Part shown: one piece after another, positions 210 to 12,396 of the stretch | Layout of the letters: the number at the start of each line of letters is the position of its first letter | How positions within the stretch are numbered: the first letter of the stretch is position 1 | NCBI GenBank assembly: GCA_964627275.1 | Contig: CAZVHT010000022.1 | Span: 1-14,313, forward strand | DNA length: 14,313 bases | Reading direction: 5' to 3' | Origin: an uncultured Candidatus Saccharibacteria bacterium | GTDB taxonomy: Bacteria; Patescibacteriota; Minisyncoccia; Phycocordibacterales; UBA6065 | Notes under the pieces: generated by a model | Told to the model about the DNA's origin: nothing | Database searches by the model: none | Seen by the model: only the letters and a program-made list of their open reading frames with translations | Made by a program: the position numbers and the translations under genes

Positions 210-232
210 TTGACTTTTGTGTATGTTATAGT
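210..232 (+). promoter_or_regulatory. Putative promoter of the 333..794 cassette (extended -10)
   Basis: TTGACT at 210-215. TGtTATAGT at 224-232 fits an extended -10 (TGnTATAAT-like). The spacer to the -35-like hexamer is only 11 nt, so the extended -10 is the likely functional element. Confidence 0.4.
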
Positions 233-332
233 GTACAACACAGGAGTAATAGTAAGTTCTTTGAGAATAGTAGTTTTGGTTGGCAGAAACAAGGATGTAT
301 TTCGGTAAATCGGCACACGCCGCTTCTGGAAA

Positions 333-794
333 ATGTCCTTTTACTGTCAACCTACAAAAATCATGAGTGTAAACGCACTAGACCTGCAGGATGAAGAACG
401 TGGTCAGCAATCGATGCGTGAAGTGACGCAACTGAAAGCCAAGCCGGCTCCAAAGCTCACTGCCAGACATTATGCCTATGAAGGCGATGTCGACAGCGAT
501 CCCGGAATCATTATCTTCGCTCTCAAACCAATGCAGGGTGAAACCTACCGCTTCCTTAACGGGGACGGTAAGATCACTCATACCATTCCTGTTGAAGGAA
601 AGGATCGTTGGGAACGTCGCAGGAACATCTCCAGTGTCATTCAAGCCGAAGCCGCGAAACACGGTCTCGGTGCATCTGCCGTCCAGTTAGATTTCGACGG
701 CATTTATATGAATCGCTGGGATTTATACTGGATTGTGAAACCCCGTGTGGTTCGCAAAACCACGTTCCGTTCGCGCTTCGACCGAACATGGTAA
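333..794 (+). CDS. Hypothetical protein (153 aa; 143 aa if it starts at ATG 363), no family recognised
   Basis: Long ORF with GC-richer codon usage than the neighbouring AT-rich spacers. It is bracketed by its own promoter-like element and a strong terminator. The start is ambiguous (ATG 333 or ATG 363). No Shine-Dalgarno sequence. Confidence 0.6.
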   Translation: MSFYCQPTKIMSVNALDLQDEERGQQSMREVTQLKAKPAPKLTARHYAYEGDVDSDPGIIIFALKPMQGETYRFLNGDGKITHTIPVEGKDRWERRRNISSVIQAEAAKHGLGASAVQLDFDGIYMNRWDLYWIVKPRVVRKTTFRSRFDRTW

Positions 795-4157: not shown

Positions 4158-4670
4158 ATGAAAAAGCTATTCTTCCTCATTGGATCATCAGGCTCTGGAA
4201 AAACTACTGCGGCTAAAACAATCGAAGGAATGAATCTTTCGGATCTTGTTGTTCGCTATTCCGATAGCATTAAGGTTCCCTCAACGGAAGAAATGATTGA
4301 GAAACACGGTAGTCAAGAAGAATGGCAAAGGCAAAATACGATCATGTGGGTCAAGAAAATAAAAGAGAGTCATTTAGATAAGGAAGACGTTCTTTTTGAT
4401 ATCCAATCACGCCCAGCTTTTATAGATGAAGCTTGTACTAAAAATGCTATATCTACTTATGAGGTAATCTTATTTGATTGCTCCGATGATGAGAGAAAGC
4501 ACAGACTCATAAATGAAAGAAAACAGCCTGAACTCGCGAATAACCAAATGATGGACTGGGCACGATATTTGAGGGAACGATGTATTGGAAAGAATCATAC
4601 GATTCTTGATAACACCAACTACACGCCAGAAGAGAGTCTTAAGAAACTCATGGAGATAATGGAAAGATAA
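4158..4670 (+). CDS. P-loop NTPase / small kinase-like protein
   Basis: 170 aa with Walker A GSSGSGKTT at the N-terminus. Size and layout resemble nucleotide or small-molecule kinases. Confidence 0.7.
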   Translation: MKKLFFLIGSSGSGKTTAAKTIEGMNLSDLVVRYSDSIKVPSTEEMIEKHGSQEEWQRQNTIMWVKKIKESHLDKEDVLFDIQSRPAFIDEACTKNAISTYEVILFDCSDDERKHRLINERKQPELANNQMMDWARYLRERCIGKNHTILDNTNYTPEESLKKLMEIMER

Positions 4671-4675
4671 ACTTT

Positions 4676-5413
4676 ATGGCATCGCCAGAAATAAATTTTA
4701 AAGACTTACCGATAGGCCCATACACAGAAGATCTGTTGCAAAAACAATGGACTGGGGTCACTAACATCAAAGGTGTTAAAGAAGGACGTTGTGAGATAGT
4801 TGAGACCCACGGAGAAAAAGCCTTGCAAGTCACTTTTGTTAAAGGAAAGCTCGGTCCAACAGACGGCGGTGCTTCTTGGCGATACAGATTTGAGAAATCT
4901 TTTGAGGAGTTCACAGTCGGATACAAGGTGATGATGGCTAAAGATTTTAAACATGTAAGAGGAGGCAAACTACCCGGTCTCTGCGGTGGATCAAATCCAC
5001 GAGGAGGCACTCAAAATATCAGTGCAGATAATGGATTTTCTGCACGAATAATGTGGCGTGAACTTGGTGCATTAGAACAATATGTCTACTACGCCAATCA
5101 AGATCCGAAAAAGAAGCATGGGACCGATCTCTATTGGAAAGAAAAAGATAAACCCGTTTCTATCATTCCTGGTATTTGGTACACAATCAAGACGTATATA
5201 AAAATGAACACCGTCGGCCAGAAAAATGGAAAGATAATCTCTTGGCTCGACGGCAAAGAAGTCCTCAATGTAGATATTGATTTAAGGAATGACCCTTCAC
5301 TTGGCATTGATTCTTTTCAATTCGTCACATATTTCGGTGGAAACGACGAAACATGGTATCCAGAAAAGAACGAGAAAATATACTTCAAAGATTTCAGCTT
5401 CATTTCTTCGTAA
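4676..5413 (+). CDS. Polysaccharide lyase family 14-like protein
   Basis: 245 aa. Motifs GGKLPGLCGG, GFSARIMWR, W..DG and F.TYFGG..ETW.P match, from memory, the PL14 (alginate-lyase-like) domain. No obvious signal peptide. Confidence 0.6.
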   Translation: MASPEINFKDLPIGPYTEDLLQKQWTGVTNIKGVKEGRCEIVETHGEKALQVTFVKGKLGPTDGGASWRYRFEKSFEEFTVGYKVMMAKDFKHVRGGKLPGLCGGSNPRGGTQNISADNGFSARIMWRELGALEQYVYYANQDPKKKHGTDLYWKEKDKPVSIIPGIWYTIKTYIKMNTVGQKNGKIISWLDGKEVLNVDIDLRNDPSLGIDSFQFVTYFGGNDETWYPEKNEKIYFKDFSFISS

Positions 5414-6112: not shown

Positions 6113-6367
6113 ATGAAAAACGTTAGCATCGAAAACAGCCCAGTCGCTCAGAAACTCGCTGCAGCTACGCTTACCCGGGCCATCCGCAGCAAGTTCAACC
6201 TCTATCCCCACGAGCAGGCCAAGGGGATCCTCGATATGTGCAGGAAAGATGGCATCGATCCCGTGGAAGCCACGGAGTATCTCACCACCCAACTGCCGTC
6301 GATGATCACGGAGTTCCTTGTGGAAGTCCGTAAGCTCGTGGAAAAGGGTCGGACGGTCAAAGCTTGA
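6113..6367 (+). CDS. Hypothetical small protein, ORF a (84 aa from ATG 6113; ORF track gives GTG 6083)
   Basis: First ORF downstream of the consensus promoter, with GC-rich codon usage. Its stop (6365-6367) lies 5 nt before the next ATG. No family recognised. Confidence 0.55.
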   Translation: MKNVSIENSPVAQKLAAATLTRAIRSKFNLYPHEQAKGILDMCRKDGIDPVEATEYLTTQLPSMITEFLVEVRKLVEKGRTVKA

Positions 6368-6372
6368 GCACC

Positions 6373-6711
6373 ATGAAGACAATCATATCGAATCAGGTGC
6401 CTATGATCGATACCAAGTCAGGTCATTACTATGTCGAACTGGCAGATCATTGCCGAGTCGCGTTCGTAACGGATCTCGCTGGACGACACTGGGTCGAAAT
6501 CACACACATCAACCGGCCGGAGGGTAACCTTCGCCTCACCGTCAAGAGAAACTTCAAGGTGGCCATCTCTGAAGACTTCCTTTTGGAAGAATTCAACGAT
6601 CATGGTGGTAGTTGTTGGGGCATGAACAAGTGTGGTTTCCCCAAGGATATCCTCGGAGACATGGAGGGTTCTCATCTGAAAAGGGTTCATGTGACCCTCG
6701 AGCAGATCTGA
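6373..6711 (+). CDS. Hypothetical protein, ORF b (112 aa from ATG 6373; ORF track gives TTG 6364)
   Basis: Tightly coupled to ORF a with the same codon style. No family recognised. Confidence 0.55.
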   Translation: MKTIISNQVPMIDTKSGHYYVELADHCRVAFVTDLAGRHWVEITHINRPEGNLRLTVKRNFKVAISEDFLLEEFNDHGGSCWGMNKCGFPKDILGDMEGSHLKRVHVTLEQI

Positions 6712-6772
6712 CGTTTGACAACGAGTTGAAGGACTCACTAAAACTTTCAACCTAGGCCCCGATCGGTCTAGG

Positions 6773-6825
6773 TTCTGTCCGAAGATGTGTATCTTCGCTG
6801 ATGAGTCCTAAAGGACGAAACAGAA
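6773..6825 (+). ncRNA. Type III hammerhead self-cleaving ribozyme
   Basis: Stem III is TTCTGT (6773-6778) paired with ACAGAA (6820-6825). The cleavage triplet is GUC, with C17 at 6779. Stem I is CGAAGAT/ATCTTCG (6780-6786/6791-6797) with loop GTGT. The core CTGATGA is at 6798-6804. Stem II is GTCC/GGAC with loop TAAA (6805-6816). GAAA is at 6817-6820. All conserved core positions are canonical. Confidence 0.85.
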
Positions 6826-6920
6826 AGTTCTTTGAATAGTTGAGTTTGGAAGGAAAGAAGCGATTGACTTGCTGGCATAAAGCCATGCGAATCGTAGATT
6901 TCCTCACTAAACTCAACATC

Positions 6921-7340
6921 ATGAAAAAACAATTAATAAAAAAGAAAGTCAGCAAGAAAAAACCGTCTTTCGTGTTCATCGTCGATTCGTACGAGGATGG
7001 CACGCTCCGCCGTGGGCTCGAAGATATGGGGCTCAACCACGAAAACGACTACCACATCACAGGTGCTGGTGGTGCGGACTGGATCATGGCGAATTACGAA
7101 GGACGCCGTATCGCGGACACCCTGAATCTGCTCGTCGTCATGAGCACTTTTCACGGATCGGTCGCACCAGCGGTCGAGCTCTGCAAACAGGTGAAAGCGG
7201 TTAACTCCAAGGCGCGGTTTATCTTCCGGAGCCAGACCTCCAGCCCGTCCGATCCGTTATTCGAAGCCTGTATGGACAAGAGCTTCGAAGACAATAAAAA
7301 ACTCCTCGCGATCATCAAGAAGTTTTTTGGAAAGAAATAG
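6921..7340 (+). CDS. Hypothetical protein, ORF c, with a receiver (CheY-like)/flavodoxin-like pattern that lacks the phospho-acceptor Asp
   Basis: 139 aa from ATG 6921 (in-frame alternatives are ATG 6885 and TTG 6840). It has a Lys-rich N-terminus, then an alternating beta-alpha pattern: FVFIVDS, LNLLVVMS, ARFIFRS, then a Lys in MDKSF. The fold call is inference from this pattern only. Confidence 0.5.
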   Translation: MKKQLIKKKVSKKKPSFVFIVDSYEDGTLRRGLEDMGLNHENDYHITGAGGADWIMANYEGRRIADTLNLLVVMSTFHGSVAPAVELCKQVKAVNSKARFIFRSQTSSPSDPLFEACMDKSFEDNKKLLAIIKKFFGKK

Positions 7341-7395
7341 TGGTATACCCACTCGGTGAAGTAACCGTAGCGCAAGCTAGAAACTTTCAAAAACA

Positions 7396-7424
7396 CCGCA
7401 TGGTTCGCCCAGCGGTTTTGTTTT
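7396..7424 (+). terminator. Rho-independent terminator of the GC-rich operon
   Basis: CCGCatGG TTCG CCcaGCGG forms a hairpin with a UUCG tetraloop. TTTTGTTTT follows. Confidence 0.75.
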
Positions 7425-7463
7425 CGTCGGGATCGTATTCCTGCCAGGTGATATACTTTTCCC

Positions 7464-7985
7464 ATGTCAGATGCACAGAAGGTCGCAAAAACACTAACTC
7501 ACATAATAATCCCGCTTCTCGAAAAATATGATTTTCGATGGGTAATTACGGGTGGGTTTGCCTCTCATGTATATGGAGTGGAGCGTCCTATCACTGATGT
7601 GGATATAGACATCGACACCTCAAAGGACTCACCTGCCTTTAAAGCCTTCACAGGGGAACTCAAGGAATTTATTACCGAACCCCTCAATCATTTTGTTGAT
7701 CAGAATTACGATAACTATAATTTCGAAGTAACATTTGATGGCGTCATATTTGATTTCTGTCCAATGAAGGAGATGAACATTTTTGATAAGGAGACAAATA
7801 AATATATCCCGTTTTATGCAAACGGATTTCCTGATTCAGAAATGGTTGAATGGAATGGTCTTAAATTACCGCTTCTTTCAAAAGAACTCGTTATTAAAAA
7901 TAAAGAGATGTTGGTTTGGCAGAGAGAGTCAGACTTTAAAGATATTGAGCAGCTTAAGAAATTGAATAGTTTAGGTCTTAGATAA
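7464..7985 (+). CDS. Nucleotidyltransferase-fold protein
   Basis: 173 aa. The NTase signature GGFASHVYGVERPITDVDIDID fits G-[GS]-x(9-13)-D-x-D. An extended -10 (TGaTATACT, 7449-7457) ends 6 nt before the ATG, suggesting a leaderless mRNA. Confidence 0.7.
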   Translation: MSDAQKVAKTLTHIIIPLLEKYDFRWVITGGFASHVYGVERPITDVDIDIDTSKDSPAFKAFTGELKEFITEPLNHFVDQNYDNYNFEVTFDGVIFDFCPMKEMNIFDKETNKYIPFYANGFPDSEMVEWNGLKLPLLSKELVIKNKEMLVWQRESDFKDIEQLKKLNSLGLR

Positions 7986-8190
7986 TGACCGACCGACGGT
8001 TTTTCAAAGTCCCCCGCATCACCGCGGTGTGCTTTCTTTTATATAGTGAATTTAGAGGTAGGGTAAAACACAGGGATATAGATACTTGCATCATTCCTCC
8101 TCTCAAACACAGTTCTAACATCCTCCACGACGGCACCACATGTTTATTGCAAGTTGATCTAAAAACCTTTATCCCTAAACGTGAGTTTCA

Positions 8191-10492: not shown

Positions 10493-10741
10493 GCCGTTGT
10501 AGCTCAGTTGGTAGAGCACGTCATTGGTGGGTCGTAACCCCTGCCCACACAAACGGTAACGTATGTGTGAATCCCGAATAACGGTTAAAGACCCTCTGGG
10601 TCAAGACCGTGGCGTTTATTTTTGCGCCCGAACGACTGACAAGGGTCTCCATAATAAATGGAGAAAGATACAGTCTAGTCCTCCCGCAAGGTGAGGTGTA
10701 AACGAATGACGAGGTCAACAGTTCAATCCTGTTCAACGGCT
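10493..10741 (+). tRNA. tRNA-Thr (GGU) interrupted by a group I intron
   Basis: Exon 1 (10493-10528) and exon 2 (10705-10741) join to a 73-nt cloverleaf: acceptor GCCGTTG/CAACGGC, anticodon stem CGTCA/TGACG, loop TTGGTAA, T arm AACAG-TTCAATC-CTGTT. It closely resembles bacterial tRNA-Thr(GGU). Confidence 0.85.
10529..10704 (+). ncRNA. Group I intron (small, Azoarcus/IC3-like layout), no internal ORF
   Basis: The 5' splice site follows U10528, which forms a wobble pair with G10543 in P1. The P2 hairpin (10546-10569) has a GUAA loop. P4 (10581-85/10606-10), an A-rich J4/5 and P5 (10590-94/10598-602) follow. P6 is 10611-14/10625-28, P7 is GACTG/CAGTC (10634-38/10671-75) and P8 is 10647-52/10658-63. 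J8/7 plus P7' reads AAAGATACAGTC, like the conserved AGATATAGTC. P9 has a GCAA loop (10680-96). The terminal G is 10704. Confidence 0.8.
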
Positions 10742-10798: not shown

Positions 10799-11242
10799 GT
10801 GCCTAATCCAAAAAAACTTAGAATAAACTGTCCAATTTGTGGTAAAGAACCTTACCGTTCGGGATATAAATATTGTAGCAATACTTGTCAGCAGGAATAT
10901 CAATACCAATCTTATATTCGAGATTGGAAAGCGGAGAAAATAATTGGTCTACAAAAACTAGGTATAGTTTCTGGATACATCAAGAAGTATTTAAGGAGAA
11001 AATTTGGAAATAAGTGTAGTATATGTGGGTGGGCAAAAATTAATCCAAGTATTGGGTACTCTCCACTAGTCGCTGATCATATCGATGGTAATTGGCGAAA
11101 TAATGTTGAGAGTAATCTCCGGTTGATTTGTCCAAACTGTGATGCATTGACTCCAACTTATGCAGGATTAAATAGGGGAAAAGGTAGGGGGAATCGCATT
11201 CTAAGTAAGAGAGCAAAAGAGGCTAATAAAATATTAATGTAA
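10799..11242 (+). CDS. HNH endonuclease (free-standing, homing-endonuclease-like)
   Basis: 147 aa with an N-terminal CxxC...C..C zinc ribbon. The HNH core is CSICGW...LVADHIDGNWRNNVESNLRLICPNCDA. GTG start. Confidence 0.8.
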   Translation: MPNPKKLRINCPICGKEPYRSGYKYCSNTCQQEYQYQSYIRDWKAEKIIGLQKLGIVSGYIKKYLRRKFGNKCSICGWAKINPSIGYSPLVADHIDGNWRNNVESNLRLICPNCDALTPTYAGLNRGKGRGNRILSKRAKEANKILM

Positions 11243-11255
11243 TTTAATTAACTAT

Positions 11256-11329
11256 GCCAAAGTAGTTCAATGGCAGAACATTACTTTCGTAAAGTAGGAA
11301 TGTGGGTCCGATTCCCACCTTTGGCTCCA
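11256..11329 (+). tRNA. tRNA-Thr (CGU), CCA encoded
   Basis: Manual cloverleaf fold: acceptor GCCAAAG/CTTTGGC, D arm GTTC/GAAC, anticodon loop TTCGTAA, T arm GTGGG-TCCGATT-CCCAC (C at position 55, unusual), discriminator T, then CCA at 11327-11329. Confidence 0.75.
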
Positions 11330-11526
11330 TGAAATATACCCCATAAAGTGAAGTTATAATAAATATATGTACGATTTTGTAAGCAGTATAGCGAATGTAA
11401 TCGGGGAATACGTAAATAAACTGATTGACTTTTGCTCTGGAAAGAAAAATGAGCCGAAAACCGCTGTGCCAGATAAAATTGTCAATAAATCCAAACCGGC
11501 GACTTGGGTGAGAAAGAAGAAATAAA

Positions 11527-12396
11527 ATGAACAAGAATTCACAACGGATGTTGGAAATTGAAAAATTGATGGCCGATTCGGCTTTTTGGGAAAATAAAGA
11601 CCGCGCCCAGACTATTTTGAAGGAATTGAATGGTCTCAAGAGCGAGTTGGCCGAAGCGAACAAATTGGAAAACGGCAATGCCATCATCACTATTTTTTCC
11701 GGCGCCGGCGGAGATGACGCCGAAGATTTTTCTCGCATGCTTCTCCAAATGTACATGAAATACGCCGACAAACAGGGTTGGACTATACATTTTATGCATC
11801 AAAATCAGAATGATCATGGTGGTTATAGAAACGTGACATTTGAAGTTGTGGGAAAGAGCGTGTATGGAACACTTAAGAACGAGTCAGGCGTTCATCGTTT
11901 GGTGCGTATTTCACCGTTTAACGCCAAAAAGATGCGCCACACTTCCTTTTCTCTGGTAGAAGTCATTCCGAAGTTTGAAAAAATAGAACACATGCCTATT
12001 CCGCCGGAGGAAATCAGAATTGAATTCGCCAGATCGTCCGGTCCTGGCGGGCAAAATGTGAATAAACGCGAAACTGCCGTGCGCCTGGTCCACATACCCA
12101 CCAAAATCGCTGTTCATTCCGATTCCGAGCGCTCGCAAGCTCAAAATAGGGAACAGGCCATGAAAATCCTCTCGGCCAAACTCTATAAACTGCGCGAGGA
12201 CGAAAAAATCGCCCGCGAGAAAGGCATGTACATATCAAAAACCACGGACATAGAATGGGGCAATCAGATACGCTCATACGTTCTGCATCCGTATAAAATG
12301 GTCAAGGACCACAGGACGGACGCGGAAACTTCAAATGTGGATGCTGTATTGGGAGGGGAGATTGATTTGTTTATAGAGGCGGAAAAAGGGCTGTAA
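11527..12396 (+). CDS. prfB: Peptide chain release factor 2 (short form, 289 aa)
   Basis: SPF tripeptide (RISPFN), GGQ motif (GPGGQNVN) and a strongly RF2-like core. The N-terminal domain 1 is much shorter than in E. coli or B. subtilis RF2. Confidence 0.9.
   Translation: MNKNSQRMLEIEKLMADSAFWENKDRAQTILKELNGLKSELAEANKLENGNAIITIFSGAGGDDAEDFSRMLLQMYMKYADKQGWTIHFMHQNQNDHGGYRNVTFEVVGKSVYGTLKNESGVHRLVRISPFNAKKMRHTSFSLVEVIPKFEKIEHMPIPPEEIRIEFARSSGPGGQNVNKRETAVRLVHIPTKIAVHSDSERSQAQNREQAMKILSAKLYKLREDEKIAREKGMYISKTTDIEWGNQIRSYVLHPYKMVKDHRTDAETSNVDAVLGGEIDLFIEAEKGL

Follow-up and report, generated by a model that had tools for sequence, protein, structure and literature searches.

A gene for tRNA-Thr(GGU) on contig CAZVHT010000022.1 (assembly GCA_964627275.1), which derives from a bacterium of the Patescibacteria, also known as the candidate phyla radiation (CPR), was found to be interrupted within its anticodon loop. 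The interruption lies in the 14,313-nt stretch of this contig that was analysed, hereafter referred to as the window, where it occupies positions 10529-10704 of the plus strand. The insert reads most plausibly as a compact group I intron of 176 nt without an open reading frame (ORF), which splits the tRNA gene between anticodon-loop nucleotides 36 and 37, and we would give this reading a probability of roughly 0.88. On comparative sequence grounds the assignment to group I appears well supported, by the architecture of the insert, by the covariation of its helices and by the occurrence of the same gene structure in at least 72 distinct genomes.

The boundaries of the intron (GGGTCG...AAACG) follow from the host gene itself, from the family alignment and from the pair counts described below. 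The 5′ exon (10493-10528, plus strand; GCCGTTG...CGTCATTGGT) comprises the 5′ strand of the acceptor stem, the D arm, the 5′ strand of the anticodon stem and loop nucleotides 32-36 (TTGGT). The 3′ exon (10705-10741, plus strand) resumes with A37 and A38 and continues with the 3′ strand of the anticodon stem, the variable loop, the T arm, the 3′ strand of the acceptor stem and a discriminator U. When introns were allowed, ARAGORN called this gene as tRNA-Thr(ggt) with i(37,176), that is, with an intron following nucleotide 36, and the joined exons gave a clean cloverleaf with the anticodon loop TTGGTAA. A preliminary description of this DNA had claimed that excision of 10529-10704 restores a canonical tRNA-Thr(GGU). 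Both the ARAGORN call and the cloverleaf bore this out, and the coordinates given there were therefore exact. With default settings, ARAGORN did not call the split tRNA-Thr(GGU), nor did the Rfam tRNA model at its gathering score. Since the default tools miss the gene, and Rfam misses the intron, genomes of this phylum will appear to be without a tRNA-Thr(GGU) unless split genes are sought.

The same description had mentioned a second tRNA-Thr isoacceptor without an intron, and tRNA-Thr(CGU) is indeed present in uninterrupted form at 11256-11329. This tRNA should not decode the codons ACC and ACU, and splicing of tRNA-Thr(GGU) is therefore presumably essential for the host. Such a dependence would explain why the structure of the intron is so strongly conserved.

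The extent of this conservation became apparent from an exon-anchored scan of one genome per GTDB species, in which the D arm of tRNA-Thr had to be followed by TTGGT and a base other than A. The scan matched 79 loci, nearly all of them in metagenome-assembled genomes of Patescibacteria, including Saccharibacteria, Paceibacterota/Parcubacteria, and Kaiser-, Nomura-, Taylor- and Vogelbacteria. In 76 of the 79 loci this gene carries an interruption at the identical position, and in four of these the fetched locus ended before the gene was complete. The remaining three were discarded as non-intron loci: L076 and L078 carry uninterrupted tRNAs with odd loops, and L007 (Halioglobus) carries a partial duplication of tRNA-Gly. 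The tRNA in L076 (minus strand, near 885-920) is an uninterrupted tRNA-Thr(GGU) of the Patescibacteria with the loop UUGGUCG, in which C37 and G38 replace A37 and A38. The scan yielded 72 distinct complete introns with lengths of 169-214 nt (median 190.5). All 72 end with a G, all 72 have a GNRA tetraloop in L2, and the pairing of the anticodon GGU with an intron-encoded GCC in P1 is invariant (72/72).

These 72 introns were aligned, and 57 proposed base pairs were scored in the alignment. Under the proposed P1-P9 structure 90.6% of the cells can pair, compared to 77.0% after column shuffling and to 30-43% when the 3′ partners are slid by one to three columns. Compensatory, two-sided changes were observed in 32 of the 57 pairs. 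Both pairs of P9.0 covary, with the combinations GU/AC, GC/GC, AC/GU and AU/AU. Furthermore, RNAalifold, which was given no structure, recovered P1, P2, P4, P5, P6, P7, P8 and P9. Within this CPR set, no variation was seen in the three anticodon pairs of P1, in P3 (apart from a few U·G pairs), in P4 and in P7. A receptor-like P8 of the form CUAAR..UAUG was found in 19 of the 28 introns with GAAA in L2 as opposed to 1 of the 44 others. Such a co-occurrence is what docking of L2 on P8, as in the Azoarcus intron, would produce.

A second pattern, anchored in the core (CGAACGACTGACAAGGG followed by ATACAGTC at a distance of 15-45 nt), matched at least 120 metagenome contigs. In these loci (L085-L204), ARAGORN with the option -i labelled many host genes as tRNA-Arg(GCG), -Pro(GGG), -His(GUG) or -Leu(GAG). 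The idea of many tRNA hosts was nevertheless rejected, as every inspected example turned out to be a tRNA-Thr(GGU), some of them with A32 (loop AUGGU/AA, the slash marking the intron), and a second tRNA host of the family was not found among them. The mislabelling arises because alternative splice registers are possible, and automated surveys could over-count the types of host tRNA through such mis-parses.

Anatomy of the intron and its proposed splicing

The intron is numbered from 1 to 176, such that the window coordinate equals 10528 + n. The exon nucleotides G34, G35 and U36 (10526-10528, plus strand) provide the 5′ strand of P1; they pair with the internal guide sequence G15 C16 C17 (10543-10545) and thereby place the splice site at a U36·G15 wobble. 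Together with this guide sequence, an extension hairpin (G1-G3 with C11-C13), the pairs of which covary, occupies 10529-10545. P2 follows as a 10-bp hairpin (intron 18-41, 10546-10569) capped by the GNRA loop GUAA (10556-10559), and nine of its ten pairs show compensatory changes. The 5′ strand of P3, CCC (45-47, 10573-10575), pairs with GGG (115-117, 10643-10645) to form a helix of 3 bp, invariant except for U·G pairs in a few copies, which makes a pseudoknot with P7. Longer or differently registered versions of P3 were sought by eye, and none was consistent across the alignment.

Between P3 and P4, J3/4 reads GAAUA. P4 is formed by nucleotides 53-58 with 77-82 (10581-10586 with 10605-10610), and three of its six pairs show compensatory changes once the phage relatives described below are added. 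Within this helix lie J4/5 (AAA, 10587-10589), the P5 hairpin (62-74, 10590-10602; compensatory changes in four of five pairs) and J5/4, an AA located between P5 and the 3′ strand of P4 (within 10581-10610). The P6 hairpin (83-100, 10611-10628) shows compensatory changes in three of its five pairs in the CPR set and in four of five with the phage relatives. The 5′ strand of P7, AACGACUG (104-110, 10632-10638), has a bulged C105 (C10633), pairs with 143-148 (10671-10676) and is invariant in all copies. P8 (118-136, 10646-10664) is a hairpin in which all seven pairs show compensatory changes. It is followed by J8/7 (AAGAUA) and the 3′ strand of P7 (CAGUCU) at 10665-10676, a segment that reads AAGATACAGTC and was aligned to the J8/7-P7 consensus by both RF00028 and R1, two covariance models introduced below. 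Its first part, AAGAUACAGUC at 10665-10675, resembles the group I consensus AAGAUAUAGUC. Finally, P9.0 pairs GU (150-151, 10678-10679) with AC (174-175, 10702-10703), the P9 hairpin (152-168, 10680-10696) carries a GCAA loop (10686-10689) and compensatory changes in four of six pairs, and the intron ends with the omega-G at 176 (10704). All these elements are on the plus strand.

The insert thus combines a U·G wobble at the splice site, an omega-G placed by P9.0, a two-domain core, an A-rich J4/5 and a bulged P7. Every hallmark that the preliminary description had listed was found, namely the U-G pair in P1, the GNRA loops of P2 and P9, P4 with J4/5 and P5, P6, P7, P8, the J8/7-P7 segment and the terminal G. 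As a single sequence, the pre-tRNA folds with a z-score of -4.9 relative to shuffled versions; the minimum-free-energy fold contains P2, P4-P6, P7/P8 and P9, and leaves out the pseudoknotted P3. Together with the recurrence of the split gene in other genomes and its compensatory changes, this stability lies far outside what chance would produce.

Splicing would proceed by two transesterifications of the usual group I kind. A guanosine supplied from outside would bind at the G10634-C10675 pair of P7 and attack after U36; by analogy with known group I introns, we take this pair to be the guanosine-binding site. The terminal G10704, placed by P9.0, would then occupy the same site, and the 5′ exon would attack the 3′ splice site so that the loop UUGGUAA is restored. 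During these steps, the GNRA loops L2 and L9 may dock on P8 and P5 and so stabilise the small core, as happens in the Azoarcus intron, in which both P8 and P5 carry CCUAAG..UAUGG.

Relation to known tRNA introns and to phage introns

According to the Williams preprint, the four classical settings of bacterial tRNA introns (Leu.3Ug, fMet.2Ug, Ile2.5Ug and Arg.5Ug) have grown to a total of 21, Thr.5Ug, Thr.3Ug and Thr.2Ug are represented in the seed alignment, and the introns are highly frequent in metagenomic assemblies of unnamed phyla (Williams 2020, bioRxiv 10.1101/2020.01.27.920355). The intron in the window conforms to the Thr.5Ug setting, in that the host is a tRNA-Thr with the anticodon GGU, the insertion follows the fifth loop nucleotide with a U at position -1 (loop UUGGU/AA), and the intron, which reads G...G, ends with G. 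The suggestion that tRNA-Thr(GGU) would be a noteworthy new host could therefore not be upheld: the seed alignment already contains this host and site, and the arrangement is common in Patescibacteria. In contrast, the view that the insertion site is that of the Azoarcus tRNA-Ile and the tRNA-Arg introns was correct, since these are classified by Williams at position 5 with U-1 and omega-G (Ile2.5Ug, Arg.5Ug).

The introns that share this setting differ in their cores. The Thr.5Ug seed Rba53, as given in the Williams alignment, has a length of ∼258 nt, an IC3-like core (AAAUUCGGGGAAA, GUAGAGACCAGACGGGCGG) and a P3 of 6 bp, and starts with A, whereas the intron in the window has 176 nt, the core segments GAAUAACGGUUAAA and CGAACGACUGACAAGGG, and a P3 of 3 bp. 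At the P4 and P6 junctions it looks closer to the seeds Mba143.Tyr.4Ug and Pgr210.Thr.2Ug than to Rba53. More generally, IC3 introns (the Leu, fMet, Ile and Arg seeds) have AAAUUCGGGGAAA for J3/4-P4-J4/5, a P3 of 6 bp, GUAGAGACUAGAC for J6/7-P7-J7/3 and a P6a. The window intron did not match this core, having GAAUAACGGUUAAA, a P3 of 3 bp, CGAACGACUGACAA and a plain P6 instead, and a hidden Markov model (HMM) from IC3-dominated seeds gave no match to it.

The best-known intron for comparison is that of Azoarcus sp. BH72 tRNA-Ile(CAU), an IC3 intron of 205 nt. Like the window intron, it is located at the 36/37 site, contains no ORF and is built from minimal helices (P2-P9 and P9.0). In both introns the anticodon forms P1, and two GNRA loops are present in L2 and L9. 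The family variants with GAAA in L2 also share with it a P8 that resembles an 11-nt receptor. On the other hand, the window intron is 29 nt shorter, is much lower in G+C, has 3 instead of 6 bp in P3, lacks P5a and P6a extensions, and has GAAUA rather than AAA in J3/4. The small size noted from the outset was confirmed: 176 nt for this intron and 169-214 nt for the family stand against 205 nt for the Azoarcus intron, which is itself called compact and self-splices efficiently (PMC13168695), and against ∼190 nt or more for the Williams seeds as hand-transcribed, which were chosen for shortness. A natural group I intron of 169-176 nt with only P1-P9, a P3 of 3 bp and two tetraloop contacts would thus be smaller than the Azoarcus model, and the alignment of 72 sequences can serve as a guide for work on minimal ribozymes or for structural work.

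A close resemblance was also detected outside tRNA genes. The core-anchored pattern matched 24 viral contigs of IMG/VR (L205-L228), in which the core lies outside any tRNA. One of these, L219 (the same contig as L090), contains three introns of 196, 190 and 184 nt (6274-6469, 6746-6935 and 7569-7752) in a capsid-like gene at 6187-8080, downstream of portal-like and scaffold-like genes. Their boundaries were set by the same rules, that is, a U paired to the G of a G(G)CC(C) guide at the 5′ end, and a terminal G after two bases complementary for P9.0 at the 3′ end. Removal of the three introns gave a single ORF of 440 amino acids (aa), which weakly matches a major-head-protein family across one of the junctions. 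GGU or GUU stands at the end of the 5′ exon in each of the four phage introns that were examined.

In the phage introns, the P7-J7/3-P3′ segment CGAACGACUGACAAGGG and the J8/7-P7′ segment AUACAGUC are identical to those of the window intron. The P3 of 3 bp, J3/4, the size (184-196 nt), the logic of P9.0 and the pairing of a terminal GGU or GUU of the 5′ exon with G(G)CC(C) are likewise shared. The phage introns differ from the window intron in that they reside in a protein-coding gene, with several copies per gene, and show compensatory differences in P4 (A-U to U-A) and P6 (G-C to A-U). They, too, go unrecognised by Rfam, and they carry no annotation. In an alignment of 19 phage and 37 CPR cores, compensatory changes were found in P4 (A-U to U-A in 14 sequences) and additional ones in P6. 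The occurrence of an almost unchanged catalytic core in capsid-like genes of phages provides a concrete and testable tie between phage introns and an intron in a host tRNA gene. In the viral contig L212, two different group I introns are found ∼580 nt apart (4448-4562 and 5099-5361), one of the core type that Rfam does not see and the other a classical match to RF00028 (78.5 bits).

We tentatively raise the idea, at a confidence well short of even odds, that these introns make up a distinct and very compact group I lineage (169-214 nt, P3 of 3 bp, core CGAACGACUGACAAGGG...AUACAGUC), to which RF00028 is blind and which is common to tRNA-Thr(GGU) of many Patescibacteria and to structural genes of phages. 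In principle, reverse splicing allows group I introns to transpose to sites where 4-6 bases can pair with the guide (PMC3984707), and this may link the GGU codons in phage mRNA with the GGU anticodon. Conceivably, a phage intron may have entered the anticodon loop by reverse splicing at a GGU site, or the movement may have been in the reverse direction, before the intron was fixed across much of the phylum.

The family is distinguished by its 3-bp P3, by a size below that of the 205-nt Azoarcus intron, by its near-invisibility to Intron_gpI and by the near-identical core in phages. The general picture of group I introns is unchanged by it, and the family is possibly the first characterised lineage of its type within a known kind. 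A preprint from 2025, going by its title, reportedly deals with introns of group I that interrupt Patescibacteria tRNA genes at a novel insertion site. The site in the window is classical, whereas that title stresses a novel one; the exact family may nonetheless already be described in the literature.

Detection by models and alternative explanations

Several observations weigh against the assignment to group I. The Rfam model RF00028 (Intron_gpI) gave the window only 11.4 bits (E = 2.5 in a search of 451 nt; cut-off 50). The same model found no family member in eight other loci at E ≤ 1, did not find the core type in 12 phage loci at the gathering threshold and, in E-value mode, reported nothing in the intron region of L219. 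With nhmmer, profiles built from 19 or 4 of the published Williams seed introns, hand-transcribed from the supplement, gave nothing significant in the window, the marginal co-linear matches having E-values of 0.31 and 1.2. R1, a covariance model that we built from the P3-P7′ cores of 16 published bacterial tRNA-intron seeds, most of them Azoarcus-like, matched the window weakly (12.8 bits, E ∼0.016), with a local alignment that skips P4-P6. With regard to the structure, a P3 of just 3 bp is short for a group I core, P3 and P7 carry no covariation support because they never vary, and no convincing P10 was seen by eye. In addition, the tRNA genes considered are those of a single contig, and the same genome may also contain an uninterrupted tRNA-Thr(GGU). 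Finally, GTP-dependent self-splicing and exon ligation are processes that we infer.

On closer inspection, the failure of RF00028 turned out to reflect a limit of the model and not of the intron. According to Williams 2020, the group I seed of Rfam contains no bacterial intron (bioRxiv 10.1101/2020.01.27.920355), and the sub-threshold alignment of RF00028 to the window has the right register for P1, P2, J8/7-P7′ and P9. The preliminary description had proposed this model as a check and its failure to recognise the core as grounds for refutation. The register of these elements was correct, but the score fell so far under the cut-off that, formally, the outcome comes near to such a failure. The best match of R1 in the whole window was at 10573-10678, which is exactly the proposed P3 to P7′. 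Moreover, R1 scored 25.6 bits (E = 2e-5) on a phage intron that shares the core of the window intron, aligning it through P3-P8, compared to 43-44 bits for the positive controls, two introns in the fetched loci that are positive with RF00028. The low scores of the window intron are probably due to its short P3 and its unusual junction sequences. A covariance model of the family itself, R2, scored members near 100 bits and did not match the RF00028-positive introns, as this model is too narrow. Single-sequence queries with nhmmer gave nothing useful, and blastn of the region against a phage database returned only a tRNA-like match of 37 nt. Model-based membership is thus weak for the window intron alone and significant for a close relative, and the case for a group I intron therefore rests mainly on architecture and covariation.

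One Saccharibacteria contig with a split tRNA-Thr(GGU), L050, also contains a second, different candidate group I intron (224-491, minus strand), which scored 38 bits with RF00028, below the cut-off, and 43 bits with R1.

It is unlikely, but more credible than the other alternatives, that the insert is a group I intron that is not an autonomous ribozyme, and that a protein cofactor or an RNA chaperone may be needed for its folding and splicing in the cell. This would fit with the invariably short P3 (CCC/GGG in all copies), the missing extensions (P5abc, P2.1 and those of P9), the G+C content of ∼50%, which is well below that of the much more G+C-rich Azoarcus ribozyme, and the minimum-free-energy fold without P3. 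Yet the two GNRA loops with their co-varying receptor partners and P9.0 are the usual stabilisers of an RNA-only fold, and there is no candidate maturase gene either within the intron or in linkage with it. The similarly minimal Azoarcus intron of 205 nt, moreover, splices itself efficiently (PMC13168695).

Another alternative concerns mobility and involves the ORF at 10799-11242, directly downstream of the split tRNA gene, which has weak matches to a Zn-ribbon and to HNH_3. Its product could mobilise the intron as a free-standing homing endonuclease that cuts intron-less tRNA-Thr(GGU), which would amount to collaborative homing, an established pathway (PMC3984707). The idea came from the patchy distribution of the HNH gene among syntenic loci with the split tRNA. 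Homologues with 63-71% identity are present on the same strand downstream of the split gene in 14 of the 72 loci, nine of them starting 100-130 nt past the intron end, and many loci with otherwise conserved gene order (tRNA-Thr, prfB, ftsE, ftsX) lack the gene. The HNH family, however, is very large, with at least 1794 clusters, and its conservation is good (∼70% identity), unlike a fast-decaying selfish endonuclease, and its match to the Pfam HNH_3 family stays below the cut-off (18.4 versus 24.8 bits). In L082 and L084 the surroundings of the gene are unrelated and include no split tRNA-Thr(GGU), and the neighbour that it keeps is tRNA-Thr(CGU), just as it does in the window and in L080. A role as the homing endonuclease of the intron is accordingly quite improbable and was mostly rejected. 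Since this widespread family sits beside tRNA-Thr(CGU) also where there is no split tRNA, the HNH gene was not counted as part of the intron. That the insert is instead an inert insertion in a pseudogene, or some other element such as an archaeal-type bulge-helix-bulge intron, a remnant of an insertion sequence (IS) or a different ribozyme, is hardly credible, even if default tRNA finders miss the gene and Rfam gives the insert no significant family. Conservation of the exons is perfect, and covariation of the helices extends over 72 genomes. Terminal repeats and an ORF are absent from the insert, and its helices and junctions are arranged as in group I introns. The site is 36/37 instead of the canonical 37/38 of the protein-spliced introns of archaea and eukaryotes, and the junctions lie in P1 and after P9.0 rather than in a bulge-helix-bulge. 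A tRNA splicing endonuclease is not known from bacteria.

Neighbouring genes and further observations

The window carries cellular genes, among whose products are a GatA-type amidase, a GNAT protein, a PL14 lyase, FtsE, FtsX and a release factor, and a cluster of tRNA genes is also present. The ∼150-aa Zn-ribbon/HNH protein adjoins tRNA-Thr(CGU) in four genomic contexts, with or without the split tRNA-Thr(GGU). These pairs are located at 10799-11242 and 11256-11329 in the window, at 2384-2962 in L080, and in L082 and L084 (2501-3020).

The release factor, which has PCRF and RF-1 domains, is short, with 289-293 aa (11527-12396 in the window and 913-1794 in L080). Its Pfam match begins at position 88 of the profile, and the N-terminal part seems to be missing. 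In the window, a separate ORF of 52 aa (11367-11525) precedes the release factor ORF. A programmed +1 frameshift in prfB that would join 11367-11525 with 11527-12396 was considered and dropped, as no site of the CTTTGAC type was found there; the release factors of related loci are likewise called at ∼293 aa, which also counts against a frameshift.

The window further contains a match to the type III hammerhead ribozyme (RF00008) at 6772-6826 on the plus strand, with a score of 48.8 bits just above the gathering score of 48.5. This element is located between the ORFs 6364-6711 and 6840-7340 of this CPR-like genome. Its CUGAUGA...GAAAC core is intact, the cleavage triplet is GUC, and both stem I and stem II are closed.

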